A DNA stretch of 64,000 nt from Camelus dromedarius (lineage: Eukaryota): NCBI RefSeq assembly GCF_036321535.1, contig NC_087472.1:92258001-92322000 (forward strand), given 5' to 3'. Every line of letters starts with the position of its first letter. Position 1 is the stretch's first letter. Below, piece after piece: positions 19,505-63,849 of this stretch. The translations under genes were made by a program, and so were the position numbers. The notes beneath the pieces are model-generated. The model had not been told where the DNA came from. It made no database searches and saw nothing but the letters and a program-made list of their open reading frames with translations.

Positions 19505-19690
<186 letters not shown>

Positions 19691-22212: not shown

Positions 22213-22506
<294 letters not shown>

Positions 22507-27452: not shown

Positions 27453-29717
27453 CATTGTTTACAATGAAAGAAAGTTAACTACTCTTAGCCCCTGATTCTA
27501 TATTATTTTTAATATTATTTATATTATTTTACATTCTAGAATAGACGTCTACTGGAGAAAGGGAAAATATGCTCTATCTTGGATTTCTTTGAAAATGTAG
27601 GTCCTTAAAGTTCCCCCAATTCTCTAAGGACTGAAAGGAAGCAAGCAGCAGGTCTTAACGAAATACCACAGTTTCTTCAGCTCTTTCTACTATATACTTT
27701 CTACATACATACTGATTCTTGTAAAAGGATTGGCTTCTGAAAGGACTGGCTTAGGGTTCTGCCTTATAAAAGAGAAAGAAATCTGACCTTAAATCCAGTG
27801 CAAGTACTAGGGACTAACAGATATTTTTGGATATAATCAAGAAGCAAATCCATGACAGAAAAAAATATTAAAATGCCTTCTGTAAGTACAGTCTCTGGAA
27901 ATCAAGACAGCGCACTGAAGTTCTCCACAGGTTCCTTAGCAATGTGCTATTTTGAGATAGAGAAAGGCTCTGAATTGGCATGCATGGGAGCTACCAGAGA
28001 TTTTTAAATTTATCTTTTAAAGGATGACAACATTGCACAACTACAGATGGAGGAGTCGAAATTTGGGGAGTGCAGTCAGGAGGTAAGAAAGAAAAATATG
28101 TGTGAGAAGCGAAATTTTGTATATTACTTGATTAGCTGATTGAGCAGCATAAAAGCCATGTTATGCCATACCTAAGGGTAGCACAGTTTCAATTATTCTG
28201 TAATCATACCCACTATGCACATTAATGCATAGGATTCAGTGTCTCTCCACTCACAGAATTACCAGTAACACGATTGTTGAATATATCCTCTAATGGTAGC
28301 GTCACTAAACACTTGACCTGTGTATTATGTTAATTTTCAGGTATCTAGGGGAAATAATATTTCCATAATGCTTGGAATTCTTTCCCCATCTTATGAAGTT
28401 CTGAGAAAGACAAGATCAATGATTTTTGAGAATTAAGTTGTTCTACATTTCTGTGTTCTATACAGTTTAACATTCACTGGTCCTTTTTCAAGTCATAATC
28501 TTTATAAATAATTTTTGTAAAAATAAAAGCATAGATTATTTTTGAAGTGTCACAAACATTTGGACACTCAAAGGTAGCATAGAGGGATGGCGGATCTGAA
28601 AGTTCAGTTACTATAGAAGGGAGCAGAACTCAACTGTCTGGAAGGTGGCTCCTTAACCATCAATTTGACTGTAGTGTTTAATGATTCATTGTGAAAATAA
28701 AGTGTTGGGAATCAAAAATGTCAGGGTTAGACTGTGGAGGGAACATTTCACAGTTAAGCCTTAAATGCACTTTGATAGTATATATCTAATCTTAAAGCCT
28801 TGCAATTTTTTCTATCTTTAAAATTTTTTTTCTATCAGTCTTAAAGGTGATGCCTGAAGCTATGTGTGGGGCTCCTCTGTTACATCTTATCTTTCTAATA
28901 CACACTATGCTTATAGCTACTGACACTAAATGTGAAACTTGTTTGGATTAGGTTTTCTTTTCAGAAGAGCTCTGGAGGATGTATTGATTTAACTGTGGTT
29001 GAAATCAGTCCTTGTAAAGATTAGAGTGAGAAAACTGAGCAATTGATAAGGCCTAAAAATGCCAGTTTATTGCCTTCTTGTTTGAAATTCTTCTTTTTTA
29101 AAAATTTAACTGGCAAATTGATCTATAATCAAATGATCTAATCTATGATCAAATTCATCCGTAATCTTCTGCTAACTAGAAATCCAAAATAATTATTTCC
29201 CTCTTTTTTGATGGAAAGTGACTTCTATAATTTTATCATTTAAAATTTTCTAGCCTAGTACTCCTGAAATATTAAACTTAAGGAGGCCTTGGTGTGGGAA
29301 ATTCTAGGCCAGTATTTCTCTGCTCAAGTTATTCTTGGGTACAAGCACTTCAAACTTCACCACTATAGACCCCAAGGTCTGCTTCCAGACTTTTTCTTGA
29401 GGGAGAGAGAAAGAGGGAGAGAGGGAGAGCGGAGGAGAGGGAGAGAAGGAGAAAGAGAGGGGAAAAGCATGTCACTGAAGGAAGCTGAGGCTCAGGACAT
29501 GAGCTCAAGGTCATATAAATCACAAATTTATTCAGGAATGTCTATGGCTGACCTACTCTATCGTTACCCATTTCATCCTTTATTTCCTTCATCACTATCA
29601 CAATTTGTAATTACCTGTTTTCATTTATTTTGCTGCCTCCTCTGTTAATATGTATCCTTCTCATAAAATGTAAAATAAGAAAGTTAGCTGTATGCTGTTT
29701 GAGTTCTTAAAGGCGTA

Positions 29718-30312: not shown

Positions 30313-32221
30313 CACTTGAAAATATCTCTTAAGCTCTTTCCCCCTTTCTGAACACCTCAGTTTCTCCTGGCACGTGGAGAATAATTCATTATAGGAATGT
30401 GGTCAGTGACAGCAAATTGAAACTAAGGGCTTAAGAAGCCTAATGATTTTCAGAAGTGTCTAGGACAGTGCCGGGCACATCGAAGGCACTCTCAGTAAGT
30501 ATTTGTTAAATGAATGAATGCATGAAATATTAATGGATAAACAGTTTTGATTACATTTCATTTTTGCGTATTTCCTCTAAATAACCCTCTCCTATACTCC
30601 ACCATACTAGTTTTTACCTTCTTTCCTTGTATTCTTATTTGACATAGCACACACTTCTTGACAGTGGATGTGGCAAGCAAATGTCTCTTCCAGGCCTGGC
30701 AAAAATTACAGCACAGCTGTAAAGATTTCCTGGCACTGAACAGCTACCTGTAATCATCTGATTATCTCCTTCCACCCTGCACACAACAGACCTTCTTAGT
30801 GTAGTTGCCGTTCTTGATTCAAAAGCTAAGGGAAAGGGAGGATAAATGTGTAAGCCACATTTGGGGCAGTTGCAAATCACTTTTTCTCTCCCAGTATCAT
30901 CACATAGGCAGTGTTTTCTAAAGTGACTGTAACAGTTCCTGTACTATTAAATCTTACTCCTGCGCTGTTGCGGAAAAGAGGTGACATAGGATTTAGACGC
31001 GTGGCTAATCCTGCACCCCACCCTCATTTTATGACCAAAAAATTCAAGGAAACTTCCAACAGAGTAAAATAAAATGTATACTGAGCTTTAAAGAAGACAG
31101 AGAACTACCAGAGTTTAATGAAATTTTACCCATTTACAAATAGATCTTTCAGAGTTAGATTAATTTTTTGAAATTTAAAAACATACTTTTTTTCCCCTAC
31201 TATATATAAACCAAATCTGGACTATGTCAGCAAATAGCCATGATAATCAGTGATTTTTTTCTACTAATATTTCTCTAAATATTTTTGAATATAATAATGG
31301 CATATGCTTTATTCAGTATTACTTTGAAGGTCAATATTTCCTAATAACAGCTTTGCTTTCCTTGACTTCAAAATAAAAATATAAGTGATAAATAAAATCA
31401 ACTGTGAAGATGATAAATAACCTTAATTATAATGGACATTTATATCATACACTTAATTACTTGGAGAAGACAAAAACTGAATGTATTCCATAAAATTCAC
31501 AGAGGTGCATATCTCTGGACTCTGGAGACTGGTGCAAATTTAAAAATATAATGTTTACCAAAATCACAGTTTCATGTAAAGAGTGACCTCTTTGAACTTA
31601 GCATATTTAGAATGTGGCCCAAACTGCAGACACAAAGAAGACAGAAAAGCGTATCTATCAGGAAAACAATTCCTCACGCAAGAAAGGTTTGCTGGAAATA
31701 GAAATGGAAGCTAGAAATGCTCCCTGAAGAAGATATTGGCAGCCACTTTCCTGAATTTATATGTTCATAGCCCCAGCTGAGTGCTCCAATTTGAAGGTAA
31801 CATGTGAGATCTTGCTTGCTTTTCCATCCCTTTCTAACATATTTTTCAAGTCTTTCTCCTCCTTTTCTCCTGTTATGGCTTGAGGTAGTTTCATTCTACA
31901 TAAACTCAGCATATCACCTCTTAGAGCTTTCACAGAAAAGGCACGCCATTTCACAAAAACAAAACCAAACAAGCCCAGCAAGGGACACTCAACATAATAT
32001 AGGAATAAATATATTAACTATCATTTATTAGAATAGTGAATTAAATATCACTTATTGAGCATTTATAATCTATTCCTTCAGTCAATATACATTTACTGAG
32101 CAAAGGCTATGTGCTTGGCCCAGCTGGGGATAAAGCAGTGAATAAACTAAGTACTTGGTTTTATGGCATGTACAGTCTATGGAGAGGAAATGGGAGAAAG
32201 AATACTGTGCAAAAATCTTTA

Positions 32222-32990
32222 TACAATACTACTTCGCACCCATTAGGATAGCTATTATTTAAAAAAAAAAAAAAAGGAAAACTACAAGTTCTGGCAAGGA
32301 TATGAAGAAACTGGAACCATTGTGCATTGCTGGTGGGAATGTAAAATGGTGCAGCTGCTGTGGAAAACCCATTTGGTAGTTCCTCAAAAAGTTAAACACA
32401 GAATTACCATATAATCCAGCAATTCCACTCCTATGTATATATGTAAAAGAACTGAAAGTAGGTACATAAACAAATACTTGTACACCAATATTCATAATAC
32501 TGTTACTCACAAGAGCCAAAGGCAACAACTCAAATGTCCACCAAAAGATGAAAGGATAAACAAAATGCAGTAAATACATACAATAGAATATTATTTACAC
32601 TTTAAAAGGAATGAAATTTTGATACATGTTACAACATGGACGAAGCTTGAAAACATTATAAGTGAGACACAAAAGGATAAATATTGTCTGACTCCGTTTA
32701 TATAATGTACCTATAATAAGCAAGTTCATAGAGATAAAAGTAGAAGTTACCCTTGGCTGGGGGAGAGGAAGGAATGGGGAGTTATTGTTTAATGGGTAGA
32801 GTTTCTGTTTGGGATGATGAAAAATTTCTGGAAAATAGGTAGTAGTGAGCAACACTGTGAATGTAATTAATGCCACTAAATTGTACAATTAAATTTTATG
32901 CTATGTCTTTTACAACAATAAAAAAATTAAATTTTACACTTTACATGGTTGACTCTCATGGTATGTGAATTATATCTCAATAAAGCTATT
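32222..32990 (+). mobile_element. L1MB-like 3' fragment
   Basis: gcattgctggtgggaatgtaaaatggtgcagctgctgtggaaa..gaattaccatataatccagcaattccactcct..ggagttattgtttaatggg. Confidence 0.85.
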
Positions 32991-36900: not shown

Positions 36901-37459
36901 TGGACCAATTAACACCTCAACAACTATGTTTGAGACTGCTTGTTTCCTCACACCTTCAACTAACCTAGTAAGCTACAAAGTGCTTTCATCTATGACAATC
37001 TAATAGGTAAAACTACAGTATTTTATTTTAGTCTTAAATTGCAATTCTGTTATTTGTGATGTTGACTATTTTTCATATACTTAAATAGTACTTGTATTCC
37101 TTATTTTGTAGACTGTCATCTTGATTTTTTTTCCTCTTGAGTTAATGATCTGATTTTCATTAATTTGTAGGAGGCCTTTGAGGCCAAACTCTAAGATGGG
37201 AAATACTAAGAAATAATTTGAGACCAGGTAGATAAGAGCACTGCTTGCTGGGAAATCAAAAGAAAGGACCATACAAAGAGCACAGGACCAGAGGTGGTCA
37301 TCCCTTCTCAGTAAGAGTGAAATAACTTTGAGAGGAAACATGTCCTTTGAAGACTTAGTGGTGAAGGGAAAAAAAGGAACTGAATGAAGATAAGGGGCTC
37401 TAATGAAAGAAGATTGTGACATAGAATCAGAAGAAATCAGACTTTCTGAAAAAAAAATG

Positions 37460-38700
37460 ACTTAAACATAAGACAGGATACAGTGGACCTCCTGGAAGAG
37501 AATATGTGCGGAACGTTGTCTGACATACATCTCGGGGGTGTTCTCCTGGGGCAGTCTGCCCAGGCAACAGAAATGGGGGCAGGAATGGACGAATGGAACC
37601 TAACTGGGCTTGCGGACTTCTGCACAGCGAAGGAAAGCATGAGTAGGACAAGGGGACAACCTACAGAATGGGAGAAAATTTCTGCAAATGAGACCAACAA
37701 GGGCTTGATCTCCAGAGTGTATGGGTAGCTCATACGACTTAATAAGAAAAAAACAAACAACCCAATCCAACAGTGGGCAAAAGACCTAAGAAGGCAGTTC
37801 TCCAGAGAGGAAATGCAGGTGATCAATGGGCACATGAAAGAATGCTCTGTGTCACTAATTGTCAGAGGAATGCAGGTCAGAGCTGTGGTGAGGTGTCGCC
37901 TCGCACCGGTCGGGGTGGTCATCATTCAGAAGTCTACGGATGACAGGTGCTGGAAAGGCTATAGAGAGGGGGGAACCCTCCTACGCTGCTGGTGAGAGTG
38001 TGGTTTGGTGCAGCTGCTGTGGAGAACAGTATGGAGATTCCTCGGGGGACTGGGAATAGACTTACCATATGACCCAGGAATCCAACTCCTGGGCATATAT
38101 CCAGAAAGAGCCCTACTTCAAAATGACACCTGCACCCTAATGTTCATATCAGCACTATTTACAATAGCCAAGACATGGAAGCAGCCTAAATGTCCATCAA
38201 CAGATGACTGGATAAAGAAGAGGTGGTATATTTATACAATGGAATAGTCTTCAGCCATAAAAACTGACAACATAACGCCATTTGCAGCAACATGGATGTT
38301 CCTGGAGAATGTCATTCTAAGTGAAGTAAGCCAGAAAGAGAAAGAAAAATACCATATGAGATCACTTATATGTGGAATCTAAAACAAAACCAAACAAAAC
38401 ATATATACAAAACAGAAACAGACTCATAGACATGGAATACAAACTTGTGGTTGCCAAGGGGGCCGGGGGTGGGAAGGCACAGACTGGGATTTTAAAATGT
38501 AGAATAGATAAATAAGATTATACTGTATAGCACAGAGAAATATACACAAGATCTTATGGTAGCTCACAGCGAAAAAAAATTTGACAATGAATATGCATAG
38601 GTTCATGCATAACTGAAAAATTGTGCTCTACATTGGAATTTGACACAACATTGTAAAATGACTATAACTCAATAAAAAATGTTTCAAAAAATAAAATAAA
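37460..38700 (+). mobile_element. 5'-truncated young camelid-type L1 with A-to-G hypermutated 5' half
   Basis: Colinear with the copy at 10884-11835 (offset 26881). Dense A>G changes up to 38052, ordinary divergence afterwards. Probable short TSD aaaa(a/t)aaaatg at 37449-37459 and 38693-38703. Confidence 0.94.
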
Positions 38701-39721: not shown

Positions 39722-42103
39722 AGTTCCCAAGGGAGAAGAGGTATAAACATAATTAGCACAGGGTCATAAAGGATAGAACAGGAAAGAGACAATAAAATAA
39801 AATAATATAAAAAGCTTTAGAAAGAACATGACAGAAAAGGCAGAAGAGATTATCCAACATACTTATAACAGAAATCCATAAAGGGGAAAAAAAGCATATC
39901 AAAGGAAGAGAAGAAATATTTTAAGACAATAATTCAAAAAAACTTTGCTGAAATAAAAGCTCTGAATTTACATATTATAAAGACCCATGATGTACCCAGG
40001 AACACCGACAAAGTATGGTCAATTCCACGAAATAGCTTAGTAAAACGATTACACTTTAAAAATGAAGAAAATGTCCTCTGAACCTTCAGAGAAAAAGGCC
40101 AAGTTGCTTACATAAAGAAAACACAAAGCACAACAAAAGCAGAGCACCAAATTCAAGAATCTAAAGGAAAGGACAGTATGAGCCAAGAAGAAACAGTATC
40201 TCAGAAAATACTATACATACAAATAAGAGAATGAGAATTTTACAGAAAAGGTGAAGAAAGATTTGCAGAAATTTTGGTAGTAAGCATACTTAATTGAAAA
40301 CCTGGAACTAAAATAATGGCAGTATTAAGGTTGGAGGAATGATGCATTAATGGTGTTTGTTCTGCTAAAGTAGAAATAACATGACTAAAAAGTGCAAAGA
40401 GAAGGAAGAAAGGAACACAGAGTAAAATGATTCATTAGCACATAGGTGGGAATTAAAATATTCTTTAGAGTTGACATTATAGTACAAACCTAAGAAAAAA
40501 GAGGACTGAATAATTACATAAAGGTATTAGTATAAAGATAACTTATGAAAACCAAAAAAAAAAAAAAGACAAAATACCAAATAGAATGGCAGAGCTGTAG
40601 GATCTCTTTTTATTAAGGACATTAGAACTTTTTGAAGTATACTGCCAATATTTTCCCCCAGTTTGTTATTTACCATTTAATTTTATTTTGTTTACCATGC
40701 AGGTTGTTTTTTATTCTTTTGTAGTAACTGTATCAATCTTCCATTTTATACTTTCTGGATTTTGTTTCTTTTAGAAAGACCTCCTCCACTCTGCAATTAT
40801 ATAGATTTTTAAAATTCTCCAATATTTTCTTCTAGTAGTTTTACAGTGTCATCATTGATTCATTTACTTTTACAGAATTGGTAAGAAAGACAAAGGTATA
40901 TATTTTTTCAAACAGATTCATTTTTTTGCCAATATCACTAAGTGAAAACAAACTTTTCTCTGCTGACATGTGATGCCACTCTTATTGTATAACTTCTGTG
41001 TTTGGGGAATTGTCTCTTAGATCAACTGTTCAATGCACCAGGAAGATACTGTTTAATATTATATAGGTAAGGCAGTCTCTTAACATTACTTATTAGTTAC
41101 AATAACTTCTTCACTGTCCTTGGTGCTTATTTTTCTGTAAACTTTAGAACTATATTGACTGATTCTAATGGGCAGCAGCTTCATGAATGATTTGTTTTGC
41201 TTCTAAGTAATTTATGCAATACATTTGTGAAAAAAAACTCCAAAATATACATGTTATCTTGAGATGATATCCTGTTGGGCACCTGCCACTAAGTTTCCTA
41301 TCAATGTTTCCAAATACTCTTTGGCTTTTAGGGGTAGCTTGGTAGGAAAATGGAAAGAGGTCAGGCTTTGGAGTCAGAAACATATTTATACATTGCTTCA
41401 ACTGTTTACCATTCTGTAACCTTGTTACTGTTAGCCTGTTACTTAAGTTGGTTGAATATCAGTTTCTTCATTTGAAAAGTGAGAATAAAAATGTCTGTGT
41501 TGCAAATTTCCTGGAATATTAGATAAACCGTATTTTGAATAATTCTGAAATATGCCTGACTCTTAGTGGGAACTCTCTGGAAATAACTTCAAATATATGT
41601 TGACAACTTCATCTATAGCTTCAATCTAGAGTTCTCTCCTAACTTCAGAATTGCCATGGCTTGATTCCATTTATTTATCTGGTAAATTTCTATTCATCCT
41701 CTAAGAAAGCTCAACTATCACCTCCTTTGGTAATAGTTTTTCTCATGTCTCCATGTTTAGCACTTCCTCTCCTTTATCGATCTGTCCAAAAGTCTATGAT
41801 TTGTGGTGTATTCTATTTATCTGATTACTTATTTGCCTCCCCAAGGAAACTGTGAACTCCTCCACAGCAAGTCACTGGTCACTGGTTCTACTGTCTCAAT
41901 TCTAACATATTAGTCCCTTATAATCATCCTGACAAGTATCTGTTGATTGAACATAATTTTTATGAGGAGGGGAGCACCTAGAACATTTCTATTTTGTATT
42001 TTTCTATTATTTGTTCTTCATTTTACAAAAGCAAAAGGATAAAAAAGATAGTATTGTATCAGCCTCTTAAAAAATAATCTTTGTCATTATTTTGTAAAAC
42101 TGC

Positions 42104-42380
42104 ATGGATGTCCGGCCCAACTCACCAATAGGAAGCACAGGCAGGAGAACAAAAAGCGCAGACCGCTTGACGGCGCGGGGCCCCGCCCCGCCCCGCCCCG
42201 CCCCGGGGCGGAAGAGTCAGGCGCCCCGCCCCGCCCCGCCCCGGGGCGGAAGAGTCAGGCCGAGGGTGCACGCAGGCGCACAGAAGGCTCTGTGACGGGC
42301 CACATTGACTTCCGGCCTAGCCAGGGGCAACGGCGAGGCTGGGCCTAGCACAGAGGCCGCAGCCCTTACAGACACAGGTA
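42104..42380 (+). promoter_or_regulatory. Small CpG-rich promoter of the SUPT20H-like retrogene
   Basis: Abrupt GC/CpG-rich patch in AT-rich DNA. It contains CCAAT (42125-42129), arrays of CCCCGCCCC GC boxes (42181-42242), two GGCGGAAG ETS-like cores, NRF1-like CGCAGGCGCA (42271-42280) and ETS/GABP ACTTCCGG (42308-42315). Confidence 0.75.
42185..42260. repeat. Perfect 2 x 38-bp tandem duplication in the promoter
   Basis: gccccgccccgccccgccccggggcggaagagtcaggc at 42185-42222 and 42223-42260. Confidence 0.95.
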
Positions 42381-42580
42381 TTTTCACAAACTCACAAGAT
42401 TTTTGTGTACTGCTTCACTGGAGGCGGGGTTTCTTGGTGCCCATATTGAAGTTAGGCTTGTGGCTCCCCTGTGGAGTCAGGGCGTTTTGCGAACTATACT
42501 TTGATGTTAAAGACACGACTTTCATCCCACTTCATCAATTAAAGTTTTCTCTTCTTTTACGGTCCGTATTTTACACCATA

Positions 42581-44893
42581 ATGCAACAGGCTTTAGAACA
42601 AGCTTTGGAGAGGGCTGAGTATGTCATTGAAAGCGCCCAACAGAGACCCCCTAAAAGGAAACACTCATCTAGTGGGCAAACGTCTCTCTATGAAAAACTT
42701 TATGACATTTATGTTGAAGAATGTGAAAAAGAGCCTGACATTCCGGAGGAATTACGAAGCAACGTGAACTTGTTAGAGAAGCTTGTTCGGAGAGAGTCGT
42801 TGCCGTGTTTGGTGGTCAACCTGTACCCAGGAAAGGAGGGCTATTCCCTGATGCTCAAGGGAAAAAATGGATCATTTTCAGAGAGCATTCGGCTGCCTTA
42901 TGAGGAAGGGGAATTACTCGAATACTTAGACGCAGAAGAATTATCCCCTGTTCTGGTGGATCTCCTGGAAAAGTCCCAGGTTAACGTTTTTCATGATGGG
43001 TGTGTCATAGCTGAAATCCGGGACTACAGGCAGTCCAGTAACAGGGAACCTCCCGGTTACCAAAGCAGGCATATTCTCTTACGTCCTACGATGCAGACTT
43101 TAGCCTGTGATGTAGAGGCCATAGCCAGCGATAACCAGAAATGGACCCAAGAGGACAAACTTTTGCTTGAGAGCCAGCTGATCTTAGCCACAGCTGAACC
43201 ACTGTGTCTAGACCCTTCCATATCAGTAGCCTGCACTGCCAACAGAATGCTCTATAACAAGCAAAAGCTGAACACTCTCTCCATGAAAAGGAACTTCAAG
43301 AGGTTTTCTTTGGCCTCTCTGAATCAGGAGCAAGAGCTTTCCCAGTGTCCACCTCCTCGTGAGCTAGGAGTATTGGCTTCTTGCAAAAAAATAAGAGAAA
43401 CTAAAACAGGTGAACATCATGACCTCAAAATTTTTAAAGCAGGGAACTGTGCAGATATGTGGAAACAAATACCCTGTGACTTGGCTGTACCTTCTGAAGT
43501 GGATGTAGAGAAATACGCTAAAGGGAAGAATTCTGTCACATATGATGAATCACAACCAACAGTCTGGCCAACCCATGAGGTACAAGATGGTTCTGTATTT
43601 GGATGTGAAGATGGCGATCAGTCTCAAACAACAATGCTCCCTTTCATGCAGTCACTTAACGATCCACTTATCTCTGGAAAAAGAAGGTCATGTAAAAAAG
43701 TCAGACATACAAGACAACTGTCTCACCCCTATTCCTCCAGAGATGACCATTATAGTTTCATGCCCAGGCCAAAGACTGATGTCGGTAAAGTGGTCAGTTG
43801 GTCTGAGAAAATGGTCCAGAACAGCATCCAATGTCCAGTCCAGATGTCAACCAGCTCCAGTGGCTCAGCCAGTCTCAGGCAACCTTCTCCAGGGAAAGAA
43901 CCAGAACAGCCTAAGACTGGGTATGTTCAGTCTTCAGTGCTAGGCAAGGGAGCCAAACATCCACCTCCACCTACAAGACTTCCCTCAAGCTCAGCCAGGA
44001 GTTCCTCAGGTGGCAGTTTTACTTCACAGCAGGCAAGCAGCTCTCATGCACCTCCATCTCCTGCCCCTGCTCCTAAGACACCAAGTCTTTCCAACAAATC
44101 CTCTCTGGAGGTGAATCCAGCTAGCACGCTTCCTGCCACAGCCACGTCCACGTCCACTGCAGGTTCACCACAAAGGACACAGGTTTCGGCCAAATCCTCT
44201 GGCCTGAGTGTCACCAAAGTGGCACGCCCTACATGCAGAGGCCAGGCCTTGAGGAGAGGCTCCAAGCCTGTGCAGGACTCCACCAGGGGGGCCACAGCTC
44301 CTGTAAGAATCCAGTCCAGCCACCTGCCAAATGCACCACCCATGGCACCGCAGGCTCCTTCTCAAGGAGGTGTTCAATTTATTTTTAAAAATGCTTCCAG
44401 TGTCCAGTCCTTAGGTCTACTCCAACTACCACCAGGTTCACTCATTTTGAACACCCAGCAGCAGGCCCCACAGCAGCCATGGCTCTACCAGGTGATTCCA
44501 CAGCAACAACTTCAACAACCCACCACTTTGCATCCTCAACAGCCAGTGCCACAGGCCATTGTACAAGGTCCTGTCACTCAGAGTATGGCCTTACCCACTC
44601 AACAAGCCATGCTCCTTAACCTCAACAGAGTGGAGAGTTTTCTGCAGCCCCAGGCAGTTATGCTGCCTCAGCTGGGCTCTGTCCAGAGCCAACCTGGGCC
44701 CAGCCTCCCTCAGCAGAGATTCCAGCTCTTCTCTGCCTTGCAGCTGCAGCCACAGCCACAGCTGCAGCCACAACCAATACAGTTCGGAATCTTGCAGTAT
44801 CCAGTGGCTGTGACCACAGTAGCAGCCCAAATGGCTCAGCCACATCCACCAAGTGAGCATACAGAAAGCCAGTCAAAAGGTAAAATGTCCTGA
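42581..44893 (+). CDS. Intronless SUPT20H-like (SPT20 homolog, SAGA subunit) retrogene, 770 aa
   Basis: Uninterrupted ORF from ATG 42581 (cataATGc, A at -3) to TGA 44891-44893. The N-terminus [27 protein letters not shown] and core [74 protein letters not shown] match SUPT20H. The C-terminus is S/P- then Q-rich. The parent gene is multi-exonic. Orthology to SUPT20HL1/2 is not established. Confidence 0.93.
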
Positions 44894-45094
44894 GGCTTGC
44901 ATTACTTTTTAATCTTAAAAAAAAAAACCCAACAATGCAAGAGCATTGGATTGAAGGGGTTCTGAGTTTTTACTTCATTTTTGTCTTTCATTTCTCAGTA
45001 TTTTACATTGTGAGGCATACCAAATATACAAAAGTACAACCCTATGCATTTTTAAAAAAACAGGGAAATGATTTATTGAAAAAAAAAAAAAAAA
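44894..45094 (+). other. Probable retroposed 3' UTR ending in an A16 tract
   Basis: About 185 nt after the stop codon, then A16 (45079-45094), then MIR-like sequence. The A tract may be the retrocopy poly(A) remnant. No convincing TSD was found. Confidence 0.5.
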
Positions 45095-45270
45095 GAATGG
45101 ACTATGGATCTAGCCACCATGAGGTCAAAACCCCCACTTGGCAACTGAGTAACCTTAAGTCTATTTCCTAACTTCTCTGAATCTCCATTTCTTTGTTTAT
45201 AAAATGTAAACACTTATATCTACTTCTTAAGTTTACTGTCAAGGTTAATGTAAGTAAAATGTATTGAATA
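45095..45270 (+). mobile_element. MIR fragment abutting the retrogene 3' end
   Basis: ctgagtaaccttaag..tttcctaacttctctgaatctccatttctttgtttataaaatg, the MIR core. Confidence 0.6.
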
Positions 45271-45437
45271 CTGAAATTCAAATTAATTTTAAATTAATTT
45301 TAGTTAATAAAATATTAAATATTTGAAAGAAATAAGCATAAGTACTTAAGCTGAAAATAACCTATAGTAATAATATTACTGCAAATGATAGTTCTGTTAC
45401 ATTACATAGAAGTCAAACTTAGAATCAATTGCAGATA

Positions 45438-45720
45438 ATAGGTTTTCAAAGTATATGTAATTAAATACATATTATTATTATATATTCCTTAGGTTTGCAA
45501 ATTATACATCTATATATTATTATTATAATATTTATATTCCTTAGATTACTTATATTTACATATTCTGTACTCTTTATATTTCTATATTCCTTAGGTTTTT
45601 AAATTATACATATATATGTGTGTTCCTTAGGTTCCCTCTATTTACATATCCCTTAGGTTTTCAAATCCCACAGATATAATTAAATATATATTATTATATA
45701 TTCCTTAGGTTTTCAAATTG
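45438..45720. repeat. Degenerate AT-rich minisatellite with recurring tattccttagg(tttt)caaa motif
   Basis: About six ccttag-containing units with variable TA-rich spacers. Confidence 0.75.
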
Positions 45721-48239
45721 TAGAAATAGATATAGATAGACATAGATAGACAAATTTTAATCCTCTCTTAGTAAACAGTAGCCCTTTTACTCTTAGTAGA
45801 TGCACCACATGGTGAATTCTTTCTCTTTCTGATAAAACTGGATACGTTAGGCACTTGTAATTTGTTCTTCAGTAATTGAGGGATGATTTGGATATATGAC
45901 TCAATATCATTTGCCAGATAATATTCTTCAAATGCATTATTCATGTGGTGCTTATTATTTTGCAAACACTTCATAACATACAAATGCCCCTGCTGTCTAC
46001 CATTCATCTTGCTCCTTTATTCTGTCTCAATTATTTTGTCCCCATCAGACAAGATAACAATCACGAGAGAGAAAAGGTAAAAGTTTCTTGACTTAAAATG
46101 GACAAGTGAATGAAAAATGGTAAGTTTAGATGAACTGATGAAACAAATGACAACAGGCAATTATAGGAAAAGGAATGAATAACTGTGATACTAAGGTATC
46201 TTTAAGTATACTTGCTAATTACAAATGATTTCTGTGGCTCCTAAACAATGTATTTTAGAGTAATAATGTAAAGTAAGAAATTAAATAGCTAGTTCAAATG
46301 CCCTCCTCCCCCAAATACTTGAGTAAATTCATACATGTGGATAATACTTTCAAAATATTTTATATGTAAAAAAAAAATTATATCAGTCAAAAAAGTCATC
46401 TTCCCAGTTTTCTGGAATTGAAGGTTGCTTGAAAAGAATGAGATACTGAAAAATATCAGAAAAATATATTTGTTAAACAGTTATTTTCATTGAAAGATTT
46501 TATTTTATTGCACTGATATTTGCTCCTTGAGGCATCCCCTTGGATGACTGGTAAACATCTTTCACTTAACATGCCCAAATATGATGGCATTCATCTTTTC
46601 CCCAAGCCTATCAGAACCTTTACTATTTGATATTAGAATAATTCACAAAGTAACTGAATTAATTACCAAGTAATTTTAAATAATTTAAAAAATAGAAAAT
46701 CTCTTTACATATCCTTATCATCCCTGACTACTTCTGTTCTAACTTGTGAACTTTGAGGGATTCTTAGAGAAATTCTCAGGCTTCTTAACAGCTGAACCAC
46801 CACCCAACTTAAGGAAATAATATGGAAAATCTGTAGATAGAATGGGTCCAGAAACTAGCAAATGGATTCATCATAAAATATTTTCATCTGTGACATTTCT
46901 GACCATGTCACACTCCTTTGCTTAATATCCTTCCCTGCATCTGCATACTCTGTGAAATCAAATTCAAACTATTTCGCTTGACTATATGGGGTTGTTTTTA
47001 ACCAGGATTTGGTCTGTCTCTCTTCCCCATTTCCTACCACTTCCCCATTCACATCTGTGGCTTTGGCAGTACTTAATTATTGGTGCTCCCGATGTGCCAT
47101 ATTCGTCTTCACTTCCCTGTGTTGGTGGAGACCCTCAAGCAAGAACTCCTTGCCATTCTCTGCATATAGCTTAGTACTCAGCCTAAGAACTACCCCTCTG
47201 TATACAGTCTATTTGCATATCATCCTTCATTACAGCACATTTCAAACTATTTCACAGAGTTATTTGTGAATCAAATATGGTAGTAAAAATTAAAAAAAAA
47301 TAAGAATTAAAAACATAAATTAATATAAATGTCCTTTAAAATTTTTTTTTATGTTTTCATAGATTGTATAACTTTGCATGTATTTATATAGCGTTAGTAC
47401 TTTTATCTGAATGGTTAAAATTTTACTATATATAATTACAAATATACGTAATTTATATTTTCTGCATTGAATGTCATAGTTGTCTTTTTAAAACATCAAA
47501 AATACAAAATGGAAACTATTATTGTAAAAAATAATATATATAAAATAATAGTATCTTATAAGTATTTAAGTGTAATTTAACTTTAAGCAGAGGTTAAGAT
47601 AATTTTAAGAAGTAAGAAAATTAAATACAGCTTTTTTGTTTGTTTTCTTGGCTTTGAACCAAGGAAATAGTCTTCAATTCATTATTCAGTCATAGGTTAT
47701 TTTGATTAACATAAAAGTTCTCTTTTACAAAATTCCAAGGCCAAAGGAACAGGAAGACAACAAATCAATAAGATACTCTTTTTTATTTCCAATCACCTCA
47801 TTTCTTTTGCATTTGTATTTCTTAGAAGTTTTGAATGTGGGGCATATCCCAATGTATGCAAATAAGACAGCATTCTCCTGTCTCTTGTTTCCTTGTTATT
47901 GTGCCATGTGGTAAAAACAGTCTGATGGAGTCTTATTAGATTGGAAAGCTATGTTTGGGATGACAGGGGTTAAAAACAGAGGTGGTGGGAAAATGGGGAG
48001 TTGTTCAGTGAGTAGAGTTTCAATTTCACAAGATGAAAAAGTTATAGAAATTTGCTGTACAACAATGTGACTCTACCTAACAGCAATGAACTGTATACTT
48101 AAAAATGGTTAAGGTGGTAACTTTTATGTTGTGTGTTTTTTACCACAATTAAAATTTTAAAACAACAATATAACAGTTGTGGCATACAAAATACTTCATT
48201 TTCAGGGGCCCTAGGGGAACCTCAGACACCTAAGCGCTC

Positions 48240-60651: not shown

Positions 60652-62490
60652 ACATACGTGTGACTAATGGGGGGCAAAAATGGGACGTTAATTAAATGAG
60701 TTTCTCAGAAAAGTTTAGCCCTTAGTTAAATGAGTATTATACATATACAGATGCACATACAGGTATGGGTATTCTGATGTAAAATAATACAAACTAATCT
60801 TTTCTCATAGAATCTTATAAGGTTGGCTTTAGGGAATGTTTCCTTCTCTTAAAAGTCATCACTGAATGTGTTTCACCATATCTCAATCGAATAATGCTAT
60901 TGTATACTTTCAGAAAATTAGGCATTTAATAAAATCAAAGGGATATTTTATTCCTGAGTTTCTACAATGTGCTTGGTTCTATGGAATAATAGTTAATAAA
61001 CACAAATGTATAGTGTAGTCCCTGTTTTAGACTGGCTTTTGGAAGCAAAGGAAAACATTCACCTAAGTCCTAAGAAAAAGGGGATGCCTAGACTAGAACA
61101 AAAACCAGGAATCACTGAACTTGTACCACCTCTCTGTCCCTGCCTTGTTTTGTCATGAGCCATTTGGTCTCCTCTCATGACATCTCAGCTTCTCCTTGTT
61201 AGGCTCATTGGGACAAAATATGGAAAATAAATTTTTGAAAAAGCAAAAATTATCCAAAGTCCCACTACAGGAGAAAACCATTATTAATAATTTGTGTATT
61301 TATTTTCTGTATTTTCCCAAGAAGCTTGTATTTTCTTTTAACAACCTGCAAAAGATAAAGCTACTTTCATTTTAAATGATAAATACATGGGGAAAATCAA
61401 CAAGTACATTATTTTGATTACCCAAGTACTTGTTGGCCAACAGTGTAGAAATTGTCACCTCCTTCAGGCACTTATGAGAGAGACCTCCAGAAGTAATGAC
61501 GCTGAGCTGTCTAAGGGAGCTTTTTAAATATTAATCTTAGAAATTTTATTTCAGAAAAAAAGGCTTCATTCTCTGTTAACATTGGGACCTGTGGCCTAGC
61601 TGCGGTGCCCTGTTATCCTCCTTCTTTGACATTGCATAGTCCACTTGCTTTTAATGATGTTTACTTGAACTTAAAGAGAAATGTATTTTTACCATCATTA
61701 TTTTAATCTGCATGTTAGCATAATTAGACAAATCAGGTGATACTAGCCTACATTCTAAGCCATGTTTACAATTTAAACACTGATATTTAATTAGAAAATA
61801 GACTAAATTAGTCTTCATATTGTGATGTATGTCTGTCTTTCTCTACATCTTCCTCTGCTAACATCTATCCTTTGTTGTGACTGAGGAAGGTGAAGGCAGA
61901 GCTGCCCAAACACATCACTAATGAGCAGATGCAAATGTACTTGTTGAATGATTCATCCTCAAAAAAAATACTACATTCTTGACCTCCTTTTTCTAATCAC
62001 ACCTATCTTCATTTTATTCTGTCTTCTTACTGCTACATGGAATTAAAGTTGGGGAAAAAGTGACACTTTACTTTCTGTTCAGACATACACTTGTTTATCT
62101 GTTTACTGTGTTTCCTCCACTATAACCTAAGATTTTATACCTGTTCCCTACTCCTGAATTCCCTTTTCTGAATCATAAAGTAGTTTTGTCAAAGGGTAAG
62201 TAGCAATGATATATTTAATATATACTGAATATCTACTATGTGCTAAGTACTAGATTAGGTTCATCTTCATGCAATATTTAATTTCATCTTCATCACAATC
62301 TTATGTATTTTCCTTAGTTGGCAGTGATGGAATGAATGCTTAGAAAGTTATGTAACATGGCTAACAGTACACAGACAAAATGAAAAGTCGAAATGATGTG
62401 CTTCCTATATCCTTCCAGTATGCCGAGCTGCTTAAGAGTCTGGTCCAGTTTCTCTCTCAGGGTCATTGCCATGGTGATATGCAATATTTC

Positions 62491-62638
62491 AGAGAGAGAG
62501 AGAGAAGAGGAAAGGAGAAGAGAGGAGGGAGGGGAGGGGAGAGGAGGAGCGGGGAGGGGAAGGGAAGAGAGGAGAGAGGAGGGGAGGGGAAGGGAGGGAA
62601 GAGAAGGAGAGGGGAGGGAAGGGGAGGGAAGGAAGTGA

Positions 62639-62686
<48 letters not shown>
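62491..62686. repeat. Polypurine (GGAGG/GA-rich) low-complexity tract followed by (GT)n
   Basis: Direct inspection. Confidence 0.95.
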
Positions 62687-62687
<1 letters not shown>

Positions 62688-63027
62688 AGTGTGTTTGCAT
62701 TTTCCCAGTATATACTTGGGAGAACAGATCACAGTTCTCAGTCCATGTGGCTCTTGTTAGGCAAAGTCTATCCTTGGCCTTGGGTGTGAGCATATGACTC
62801 AAGACTGGCCAATCAAAGTACTACACTCATTAGCCACTTGAGCAGGTTCAGGCATGGGCATATGATCGAAGTATGCAACCAAAAGTAGACCTAGCAAAAA
62901 TCAACAGGTTTCTCAAAGGAGGGGTGGTGGATCAGGGATCCATATAAGCCTGAGGCTATCAGGGGCCATTTTAATCATCAGAAGGGTAGAGGTTGACTGA
63001 GAATGAAGCCAACATAGGGAAACGAAA

Positions 63028-63187
63028 GAACATTTAAGAGATGGAGAAATAGAGACAGGCACAGGGAGAGAAGAGGAAAGAGGAGTAGGAGGAAGGGGAA
63101 GAGAACATTTAAGAGATGGAGAAGCAGAGATAGGCACAAGGAGAGGAGCGGGAGAAGAGCAAAGAGGAGTGGGAGGAAGGGGAAGAA
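63028..63187. repeat. Imperfect 2-copy purine-rich tandem duplication (~75-85 bp unit)
   Basis: agaacatttaagagatggagaa...ggcaca..gagaagag.aaagaggagt.ggaggaaggggaaga occurs twice in succession. Confidence 0.8.
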
Positions 63188-63849
63188 TAGAGGGAAGAGG
63201 AAGAAAAGAGATCAAGTACTAATAATATCAGTTGAACTTCTAGATTCAGCTACATCTGTAGTTGTGACAGTGACAGTCCTACCATTAGAGTATTCAGTTA
63301 CTGAGTCAAAATATTTCTTTTATATTTCAAGCTATATTTCTGTCACTAGCCCCTCAGGGAGTTATAATACAGAAAATGAGTATGAAAAAGGAATATTTTT
63401 AATAAGAACACAAGCTTCTCTTTTAAGTCAATCATTGTCTAAAATTAAAAGCAAATATTTAACAATCTAGCTAAGCAAACTTTTAGTAGTATCTACAGAT
63501 CCTCTTGTAAATGTAAAGAATCAAAACCCATAATTTAACACTTTTAGACTCACTGTAAATATAGCATTCTATGTTCAACTGCATTTGGCTAGGATACATA
63601 TCTATATCAGATATATATGTGCTATTTCCCATATAATACTAAAAGTAAACATCTCTTAAAGAAATTAAATTCATATGCCTCTCTCATGCACTTTACAGTT
63701 AACTCAGCCAACAGCTTACTCATTCACTTAATGAGTCATTTATTCAAGCCTTGAAGGATGGAAATCGTGCTAATTGCTGAAAAAAAAAATTAAGATATGG
63801 TCTCTCTGTTCTTTAGGAGCTCAATATAAAGAGGTATCTCAGGAAAAAA

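Follow-up and report, generated by a model that had tools for sequence, protein, structure and literature searches.

A constrained SUPT20H-like retrogene in an IL1RAPL1 intron of the dromedary and its relation to the X-linked SUPT20HL family

SUPT20H is a core scaffold of the SAGA complex, and germline paralogues of transcription-complex subunits are known, among them TAF7L, TAF1L and TAF4B, which are often X-linked or retroposed and substitute for the somatic subunit. Here we describe an intronless SUPT20H-like gene, hereafter copy A, that lies within an intron of IL1RAPL1 at positions 42581..44893 (+) of a 64,000-nucleotide stretch of the Camelus dromedarius genome (contig NC_087472.1, positions 92,258,001 to 92,322,000 of the forward strand; this whole stretch is called the window, and coordinates refer to it unless a contig is named). 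The closest described genes are SUPT20HL1 and SUPT20HL2 (FAM48B1/FAM48B2). In the passages of the human literature cited here, FAM48B1 consists of a single exon and lies 99 kb beyond ZFX (PMC2794193); SUPT20HL1 is tabulated with PDK3 at Xp22.11 in a genome-wide association table, in which the SUPT20HL1/PDK3 locus is among the risk loci for testicular germ cell tumour (PMC8302763); and a gene list has SUPT20HL1 and SUPT20HL2 adjoining PDK3, with 16 coding genes and no SUPT20H-like entry for a duplication of 25.0-30.7 Mb that includes IL1RAPL1 (PMC11621888). SUPT20HL1/2 have received little study: in the main texts of the openly accessible literature they appear mostly in gene lists, and no study of the evolution or function of the family was found there.

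Copy A shares with SUPT20HL1/2, and with two further camel copies, B and C, its X linkage, single exon, derivation from SUPT20H, Spt20 SEP domain and membership of one laurasiatherian/boreoeutherian retrogene family on the tree described below. Unlike the SUPT20HL1/2-type copies B and C, which form an inverted, near-identical pair between PDK3 and ZFX, it is single and located in an IL1RAPL1 intron; it also differs from copy B in its C-terminal part (53.5% identity), in the ratio of nonsynonymous to synonymous divergence (dN/dS, or omega; 0.54 versus 0.86) and in GC content at third codon positions (GC3; 0.44 versus 0.59). Like SUPT20H (PDB 8h7g, 7ktr), to which it is colinear over residues 1-769 with small indels, copy A retains the SEP domain, and it carries fragments of the parental untranslated regions (UTRs); unlike SUPT20H, it is intronless and X-linked, has about 60% overall identity to it and a CpG island of its own, and ends in ...SQSKGKMS without the parental tail. 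Copy A adds one more conserved member to the X-linked SUPT20HL family, which was already known, and is no new kind of gene; public annotation already includes gene models of its type, named either 'hypothetical protein' or 'transcription factor SPT20 homolog'. The original prediction, made from the letters of the window, of an intact SUPT20H-like retrogene antisense in an IL1RAPL1 intron is borne out by the concordance of the reading frame, the Pfam PF12090 match, a multi-exon parent and the mapping of the host exons.

Coding sequence and constraint

The open reading frame (ORF) of copy A consists of 770 codons and a stop, begins with ATG and contains neither an internal stop nor a frameshift; in agreement with the uninterrupted frame first predicted, no other ORF of 150 or more amino acids overlaps positions 41500-46000. 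The stop-to-stop frame opens at 42296 and its first in-frame ATG, at 42581, is aligned with residue 1 of human SUPT20H, so that the intronless coding sequence is colinear with residues 1-769 of the human protein (chain 8h7g_D of a SAGA structure; E 2.9e-279). Residues 74-218, encoded by 42800..43234 (+), match the Pfam family Spt20_SEP (PF12090) with an E-value of 5.3e-24 and a score of 85.3 bits, the cut-off being 27.1. Identity to parental SUPT20H proteins amounts to 80-82% over residues 1-240 and 51-56% over residues 241-770, as expected from the proposal that the Spt20 part is conserved and the C-terminal half more diverged. The top database match is a Camelus ferus hypothetical protein of 770 residues that is 99% identical. 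The 2-kb bin at 42001-44000 has a GC content of 0.477, with all other bins of the window between 0.286 and 0.393.

Divergence was computed against parental codons from those tblastn blocks that passed a filter for similarity to pig SUPT20H; of these codons 651 of 780 were recovered and 626 were usable in all three sequences (copy A, copy B and the parent). Over residues 1-240, the region that holds the SEP domain, the Nei-Gojobori method (NG86) gives a dN of 0.105, a dS of 0.774 and an omega of 0.14 between copy A and the parent, and omega for this region is about 0.13, the estimates ranging over 0.13-0.17. The same pairwise comparison over residues 241-770 yields an omega of 0.54, a value that recurs for the branch leading to copy A (0.54, 95% bootstrap interval 0.36-0.87; omega reaches 1 or more in 1.0% of about 300 replicates) and in a star decomposition (0.53); for the branch to copy B the corresponding figure is 0.86 (0.61-1.31; 25% of replicates at or above 1). 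Within the C-terminal part of copy A, residues 241-500 have a branch omega of 0.40. When neutral evolution was simulated at a dS of 0.19, that of copy A's own branch, none of 4000 replicates left the C-terminal 530 codons free of stops (mean 9.7 stops), a conservative estimate because indels were ignored. Copy A is thus constrained, most strongly in its N-terminal 240 codons, and more tightly than the SUPT20HL1/2-type pair; its C-terminal half is under relaxed but real constraint. These figures uphold the view that retention of the ORF reflects selection, and dN/dS is not near 1 throughout, an outcome that the original prediction had named as adverse to it: the values by domain are 0.13 for residues 1-240 and 0.54 for residues 241-770.

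Origin, paralogues and domain-limited gene conversion

A six-frame search of the camel assembly with the ORF of copy A returned three full-length, stop-free matches, all on contig C37, together with seven exon-sized matches on contig C13 that represent the multi-exon parent SUPT20H, where 19 tblastn blocks of the pig protein span about 35 kb. Contig C37 is X-like, and contig C38 carries a ZFY-type gene. Besides copy A, the full-length matches are copies B and C, at C37:96406338-96408626 (-) and C37:96453041-96455329 (+), 4.1 Mb away. They encode identical proteins of 774 residues, and their loci are inverted about a spacer of roughly 44 kb and 99.943% identical over all 5289 bp compared. The arms of this palindrome measure at least 5289 bp, as identity persists over the entire compared length.

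The B/C pair lies between a PDK-type kinase gene (C37:96305894-96313676) and a ZFX-type gene with a Zfx_Zfy_act domain (C37:96536293-96553993). Since this is the PDK3-ZFX interval in which the human SUPT20HL1/2 genes are found, B and C are their positional orthologues and copy A is a paralogue; copy A is absent from the interval (C37:96.31-96.54 Mb), which holds B and C, and is located at 92.30 Mb. The camel arrangement and the human passages cited above concur with the earlier statement that SUPT20HL1/2 lie elsewhere on Xp and not in IL1RAPL1, and the occupation of the interval by B and C contradicts the possibility, named with the original prediction as one that would refute it, of a plain 1:1 orthology between copy A and SUPT20HL1/2. 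The C-terminal halves of B and C are GC-rich (GC 0.72 at positions 3000-3825 of L003, one of the two loci; GC3 0.59 versus 0.44 in copy A), which, together with their near lack of constraint (omega 0.86), fits GC-biased conversion from arm to arm.

Copy A bears two marks of a processed retrogene. It is intronless on C37 while its parent is multi-exonic on another contig, C13, and pieces of the parental UTRs flank it, homology ending on the 3′ side at a poly(A) remnant. Target-site duplications, a third such mark, would probably have been erased at a dS of 0.4 or more. The inherited 5′ UTR occupies 42366..42580 (+) and resembles both the 5′ UTR exon of the parent and copy B; its first part, 42366-42488, is 75% identical to C13:60423355-60423474, a site that precedes the parent's first coding exon, and continues uninterrupted past the point where the parental exon stops at a GT donor. 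The inherited 3′ UTR, 44894..45078 (+), likewise resembles the parental 3′ end and copy B (81% identity of 44939-45075 to C13:60455956-60456097), and is followed at 45079..45094 (+) by a pure run of 16 A residues (100% A), read as the remnant of a poly(A) tail, where homology to the parent and to B ends. A 5′-UTR intron in copy A, with its GT at about 42378, was considered and dropped, the stretch being continuous with a single parental 5′-UTR exon in genomic DNA.

Copies A and B are alignable by blastn from 42392 to 44748 (78.7% identity over 2395 columns) and more weakly across both UTRs. Beyond these limits no significant similarity was found, either between the 236 bp upstream of A and the flank of B (11 of 300 shuffles reach the local-alignment score), or between the 405 bp downstream of A and the flank of B (18 of 300), or between the DNA upstream of A and that upstream of the parent (22 of 300). 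A DNA-level segmental duplication that carried along a shared promoter, suggested by a common CCACAT..ACTTCCGGCC motif, was rejected on the first two of these comparisons. Because UTR DNA of equal age retains a similarity of about 70-75% and the flanks are abruptly dissimilar, an RNA-mediated origin is preferred over a segmental duplication; with homology stopping at the limits of the parental mRNA, copy A most likely arose by an RNA-mediated duplication.

Immediately 5′ of the retro-derived unit stands a CpG-island-like element of 220-240 bp, a putative promoter at 42130..42365 (+), with GC boxes and an ETS-like ACTTCCGG motif. Its GC content is 0.74 and its observed/expected (o/e) CpG ratio 0.80 over 42130-42350, compared with 0.34 and 0.07 in the preceding 500 bp. 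The element contains a perfect 38-bp tandem duplication of a GC-box unit (42184-42260; period 38, 2.0 copies, 100% matches), which has to be very recent compared with the gene itself. By its composition and position the island is a candidate for copy A's own promoter.

Conservation along the protein is not of one kind. Between A and B, protein identity is 96.2% over residues 1-240 and 53.5% over residues 241-770, and dS rises correspondingly from 0.083 to 0.417, against 0.584 between the C-terminal parts of A and the parent. In 30-codon windows the nucleotide identity of A and B is 96-100% over codons of about 46-235, falls to 82-88% just past this block and varies between 52 and 89% thereafter, with later windows as low as 52-70%. 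Third positions differ at 6 of 190 codons inside the block and at 168 of 559 outside it (Fisher p 1.2e-17); the control comparison of A with the parent has no such contrast (59 of 189 versus 150 of 447; p 0.58). The near identity of codons 46-235, at 42716..43285 (+), therefore marks a tract of interlocus gene conversion that copy A shares with copies B and C. At the very start of the gene, the C. ferus A protein (P0001), compared with window positions 42581-42740, has B's residue at all six of the positions in its first 53 residues at which A and B differ, and is A-like from about residue 55 onwards; this B-like start reflects either one more conversion of very recent date or a chimera in a short-read draft assembly.

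Outside camels, A-type and B-type proteins of the same species are 90-94% identical over residues 1-240 in four cetaceans, hippo and sea lion, compared with 82-88% between same-type proteins of whale, hippo and sheep; in the C-terminal part the order reverses. Sheep is an exception, with a within-species identity of 85%. The earlier description of a conserved Spt20 domain beside a diverged C-terminus is accordingly real, and the pattern has two causes, purifying selection (omega 0.13 in the N-terminal part) and concerted evolution; the reading in terms of selection needs the correction that conversion with the other two X copies contributes to the N-terminal conservation.

The wider family was placed with a search of 1.84 billion representative proteins, which yielded 627 relatives of copy A at E-values of at most 1e-3. 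Ten named ones comprise single-exon-sized 'SPT20 homolog' proteins of nine mammals (fruit bat, leaf-nosed bat, pangolin, mole, golden mole, elephant shrew, chinchilla, rabbit and mouse) and an Aotus 'SPT20 homolog-like 2'. When residues 240-774 of B served as the query, whales, hippo and ruminants each proved to possess a second type beside the A-like one; one dolphin protein of this second type, named 'SPT20 homolog-like 1' by NCBI, falls in the B clade. To keep the conversion tract out of the phylogeny we used only residues 241 to the end (67 rows, 541 columns; IQ-TREE in a quick run under a mixture model). Eight labelled parental rows, with the aardvark and sengi rows, found to be parental as well, form one tight clade; 48 laurasiatherian X-type rows, including copy A, form another (SH-aLRT 99), inside which 32 cetartiodactyl rows are united (SH-aLRT 100). 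The cetartiodactyl rows comprise an A-type group of camel A, hippo (735 residues), deer and sheep (770 residues) and seven cetaceans (SH-aLRT 82), and a B-type clade of 20 rows from camel B, hippo, ruminants and cetaceans (SH-aLRT 100).

On this conversion-free tree copy A groups with the X-linked single-exon copies and not with parental SUPT20H, which contradicts the separate offshoot of SUPT20H implied by the original prediction: copy A is a sister or paralogue of the SUPT20HL-type copies within one laurasiatherian X-linked clade. Forcing camel A and camel B together, a grouping picked for the approximately unbiased (AU) test after the first tree had been seen, costs 97.7 units of log-likelihood (lnL; p-AU 1.8e-5; 26 rows, LG+G4). 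As a camel-only duplication is thereby rejected, the split between A and B predates the separation of camels from other cetartiodactyls. Three distant representatives intended as a root did not fall on one side of any branch, one of them joining the mouse copy; with long branches meeting and the intended outgroup proving to be none, the root and the placement of primate, rodent and afrotherian copies are unreliable.

At least 12 further cetartiodactyl records have an annotated full-length A-type protein. Copy A resembles a set of single-exon proteins, labelled 'transcription factor SPT20 homolog', from cetaceans, hippo, deer and sheep (for example P0003, P0007, P0015, P0017 and P0325), which have 723-790 residues and belong to the A-type group; the cetacean ones, with 72-76% overall identity (67-72% for whale proteins in the C-terminal part), are the nearest to it outside Camelus among the matches listed. 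The N-terminal parts of these proteins are more similar to the B-type copy of their own species than to camel A. The suggestion that the gene is lineage-restricted therefore survives in altered form: at sequence level it extends at least across Cetartiodactyla, and it is not specific to camels. Among the matches listed, pigs (Sus, Phacochoerus) are represented by parental isoforms, with no copy of the single-exon type; this weak observation hints that the SUPT20HL-type family may be lost or unannotated in Suidae.

Transcription, putative function and competing explanations

A public index of sequencing runs, consisting of k-mers of assembled contigs only, was queried with 317 words sampled from 42100-45100 (3001 bp). 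Part of this stretch occurs in 20 runs, eight of which are classed as RNA. In one study, three RNA-seq cDNA runs described as 'reproductive system metagenome' contain 0.86-0.87 of the words and a fourth run contains 0.45; three metatranscriptomic runs of a second study contain 0.66, 0.38 and 0.24; and runs of kind '?', taken as DNA, contain 0.95-0.97. By our own arithmetic a transcript extending over 42366-45094 would cover about 0.91 of the stretch, and copies B and C could supply only the tract of about 570 bp; the observed fractions thus fit transcription of copy A itself.

By analogy with SUPT20H, the protein of copy A is likely to act as an alternative SAGA scaffold in reproductive cells. 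Its incorporation into SAGA is predicted from the sequence conservation of the SEP half (omega 0.13), and its tissue specificity would be for reproductive or germline cells. The comparison with TAF7L, TAF1L and TAF4B is one of analogy only, copy A being known here from its sequence and the k-mer index.

Taking origin, promoter, conversion and a role in SAGA jointly, we consider it probable, though well short of certain, that copy A is a transcribed and selectively maintained paralogue in the X-linked SUPT20HL family. The family would trace back to a processed mRNA of SUPT20H, the autosomal gene for a SAGA core subunit. Copy A would have arisen in or before the cetartiodactyl stem, when a transcript of the SUPT20HL lineage was retroposed into an intron of IL1RAPL1, the ancestral copies staying behind between PDK3 and ZFX as an inverted pair. 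Its own small CpG island just upstream may drive it; its N-terminal 240 codons would be under strong purifying selection, and in camels gene conversion would repeatedly have replaced codons 46-235 with those of the pair 4.1 Mb away, or swapped the two. The protein would replace SUPT20H as a SAGA core scaffold in reproductive or germline cells. A bolder version of this account is tentative, and we lean against it: a SUPT20HL transcript would have been re-inserted in IL1RAPL1 more than 60 million years ago and retained throughout Cetartiodactyla, where it would be the family's most constrained member, with its putatively SAGA-docking SEP domain homogenised with that of the ZFX-PDK3 palindrome by recurrent conversion across 4 Mb in camel, whales, hippo and sea lion, making these genes interchangeable germline SAGA scaffolds that differ in their C-terminal halves only.

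Several observations weigh against the main account. The omega values are rough, coming from pairwise NG86 estimates and a three-sequence star over 626 of 770 codons, and residues 501-770 have a branch omega of 0.75 with 27% of bootstrap replicates at or above 1, so that the end of copy A may be nearly unconstrained. The evidence for expression is the run index, and read-through of IL1RAPL1 pre-mRNA or carry-over of DNA may account for the words found in the RNA assemblies. The monophyly of the A-type group is weak, its SH-aLRT of 82 giving way in the 26-row tree to an unresolved grade around the B clade; the location in IL1RAPL1 is shown in camel, the A-type genes of whales, hippo and ruminants being known as sequences alone. 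Carnivores also have two kinds of X-type copies that cluster by order (Zalophus, with proteins of 794 and 1026 residues, Lynx, Mustela, Phoca), a pattern due either to parallel duplications in each order or to old paralogues homogenised by conversion. Finally, given that conversion is demonstrated, the tree could understate the age of copy A and misstate its source.

Among other explanations, the scenario implied by the original prediction is that copy A is a separate retrocopy of autosomal SUPT20H mRNA that came to look like SUPT20HL through later conversion. Homology between A and B does end at the limits of the parental mRNA, as separate retroposition predicts, conversion between them over codons 46-235 is demonstrated, and in the C-terminal part A is 55% identical to the parents and 53.5% to camel B. 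Outside the tract, however, the C-terminal tree puts copy A in the 48-row laurasiatherian X-linked clade and, within it, in the cetartiodactyl clade together with the B-type copies and apart from the parental rows (SH-aLRT 99 and 100); in this part it is also much closer to whale A-type proteins (67-72% identity) than to the parents, and its C-terminal dS is lower to B (0.417) than to the parent (0.584). We judge a separate origin unlikely. An orthologue of human SUPT20HL1 or SUPT20HL2 relocated by rearrangement would account for membership of the same X-linked, single-exon, SUPT20H-derived family and for the slower evolution of copy A, yet an inverted pair still occupies the PDK3-ZFX interval of the camel, matching the human arrangement as the cited passages give it, with copy A 4.1 Mb away inside IL1RAPL1; moreover, whales, hippo and sheep carry both types, and the dolphin 'SPT20 homolog-like 1' falls in the B clade. 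Very little credence is left for this relocation.

The remaining explanations concern what copy A does. It could be transcribed yet dispensable, its N-terminal part overwritten from B and C and its C-terminal ORF drifting, which would suit the extent of conversion over most of the SEP-domain half, the omega of 0.75 with its wide interval over residues 501-770, and a protein known here by its sequence. Drift is difficult to reconcile with a C-terminal omega of 0.54 on the branch of copy A that only 1.0% of bootstrap replicates raise to 1, with the failure of all 4000 neutral simulations to keep the C-terminal ORF open, with full-length A-type proteins in at least 12 other cetartiodactyl records, and with a constraint tighter than that of B and C (branch omega 0.86); dispensability is about as improbable, in our estimate, as a separate origin from SUPT20H. 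The relevant product might instead be an antisense transcript that modulates the expression or splicing of IL1RAPL1, the ORF being incidental: a CpG-island-associated unit does lie antisense in the 84.5-kb intron, and its sequence is present in RNA-seq assemblies. An omega well below 1, with third positions diverging freely from the parent and amino acids kept, points to selection on the protein and makes a purely antisense role as implausible as the relocation of an orthologue.

Host gene, neighbouring sequence and significance

Two coding exons of the host gene IL1RAPL1 lie in the window on the opposite strand, one of 187 bp at 22246..22432 (-) and one of 154 bp at 19537..19690 (-). Both match a solved IL1RAPL1 chain (66 aligned residues with 1 mismatch and 52 with none, respectively, as printed), have AG/GT borders and are recovered by protein mapping. 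Mapped over the camel assembly, the full-length IL1RAPL1 protein gives ten minus-strand exon matches from C37:92791400 down to 91815653, among them the exon for residues 26-125 at C37:92364963-92365262 and the 187-bp exon at C37:92280240-92280440. With its coordinates (C37:92300581-92302893, opposite strand) between these two exons, copy A is nested antisense in an intron of about 84.5 kb, and its distance of 20.1 kb from the 187-bp exon agrees with the orientation and the separation of about 20 kb that had been predicted. An IL1RAPL-type paralogue, presumably IL1RAPL2, is found on the same X contig at C37:32480861-32913491 (+). As its exon matches are only 58-73% identical, compared with 88-97% for the exons in the window, the latter belong to IL1RAPL1 proper.

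Elsewhere in the window, an AT-rich tandem repeat (45481-45617; period 50, 2.7 copies, 71% matches) begins about 400 bp 3′ of the poly(A) remnant, and shorter AT-rich repeats reach 45752. Open frames at 32160-32600 (-) and 37430-38250 (both strands) contain peptide motifs by which we take them to be fragments of LINE-1 ORF2. Purine-rich, GA-type low-complexity sequence at 29300-29480 and 62380-63470 gives rise to long frames rich in Arg, Gly and Glu, and (CA)n microsatellites occur at about 49.9, 60.6 and 62.6 kb.

For the family, these results mean that SUPT20HL has a second, older and more constrained branch in IL1RAPL1, in camels at least and probably across Cetartiodactyla, and that the uniform labels given to A-type and B-type genes hide this paralogy in annotation. 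The slow, single-copy A and the fast, GC-rich, palindromic B and C offer a natural contrast for separating the contribution of the SEP domain from that of the variable C-terminal part, as well as a clean example of conversion limited to one domain between X-linked paralogues 4 Mb apart; such long-range conversion, and the putative origin of a retrogene from a retrogene, are points worth pursuing. As IL1RAPL1 is an intellectual-disability gene, its large intron would in some mammals harbour a putative antisense unit driven by a CpG island.

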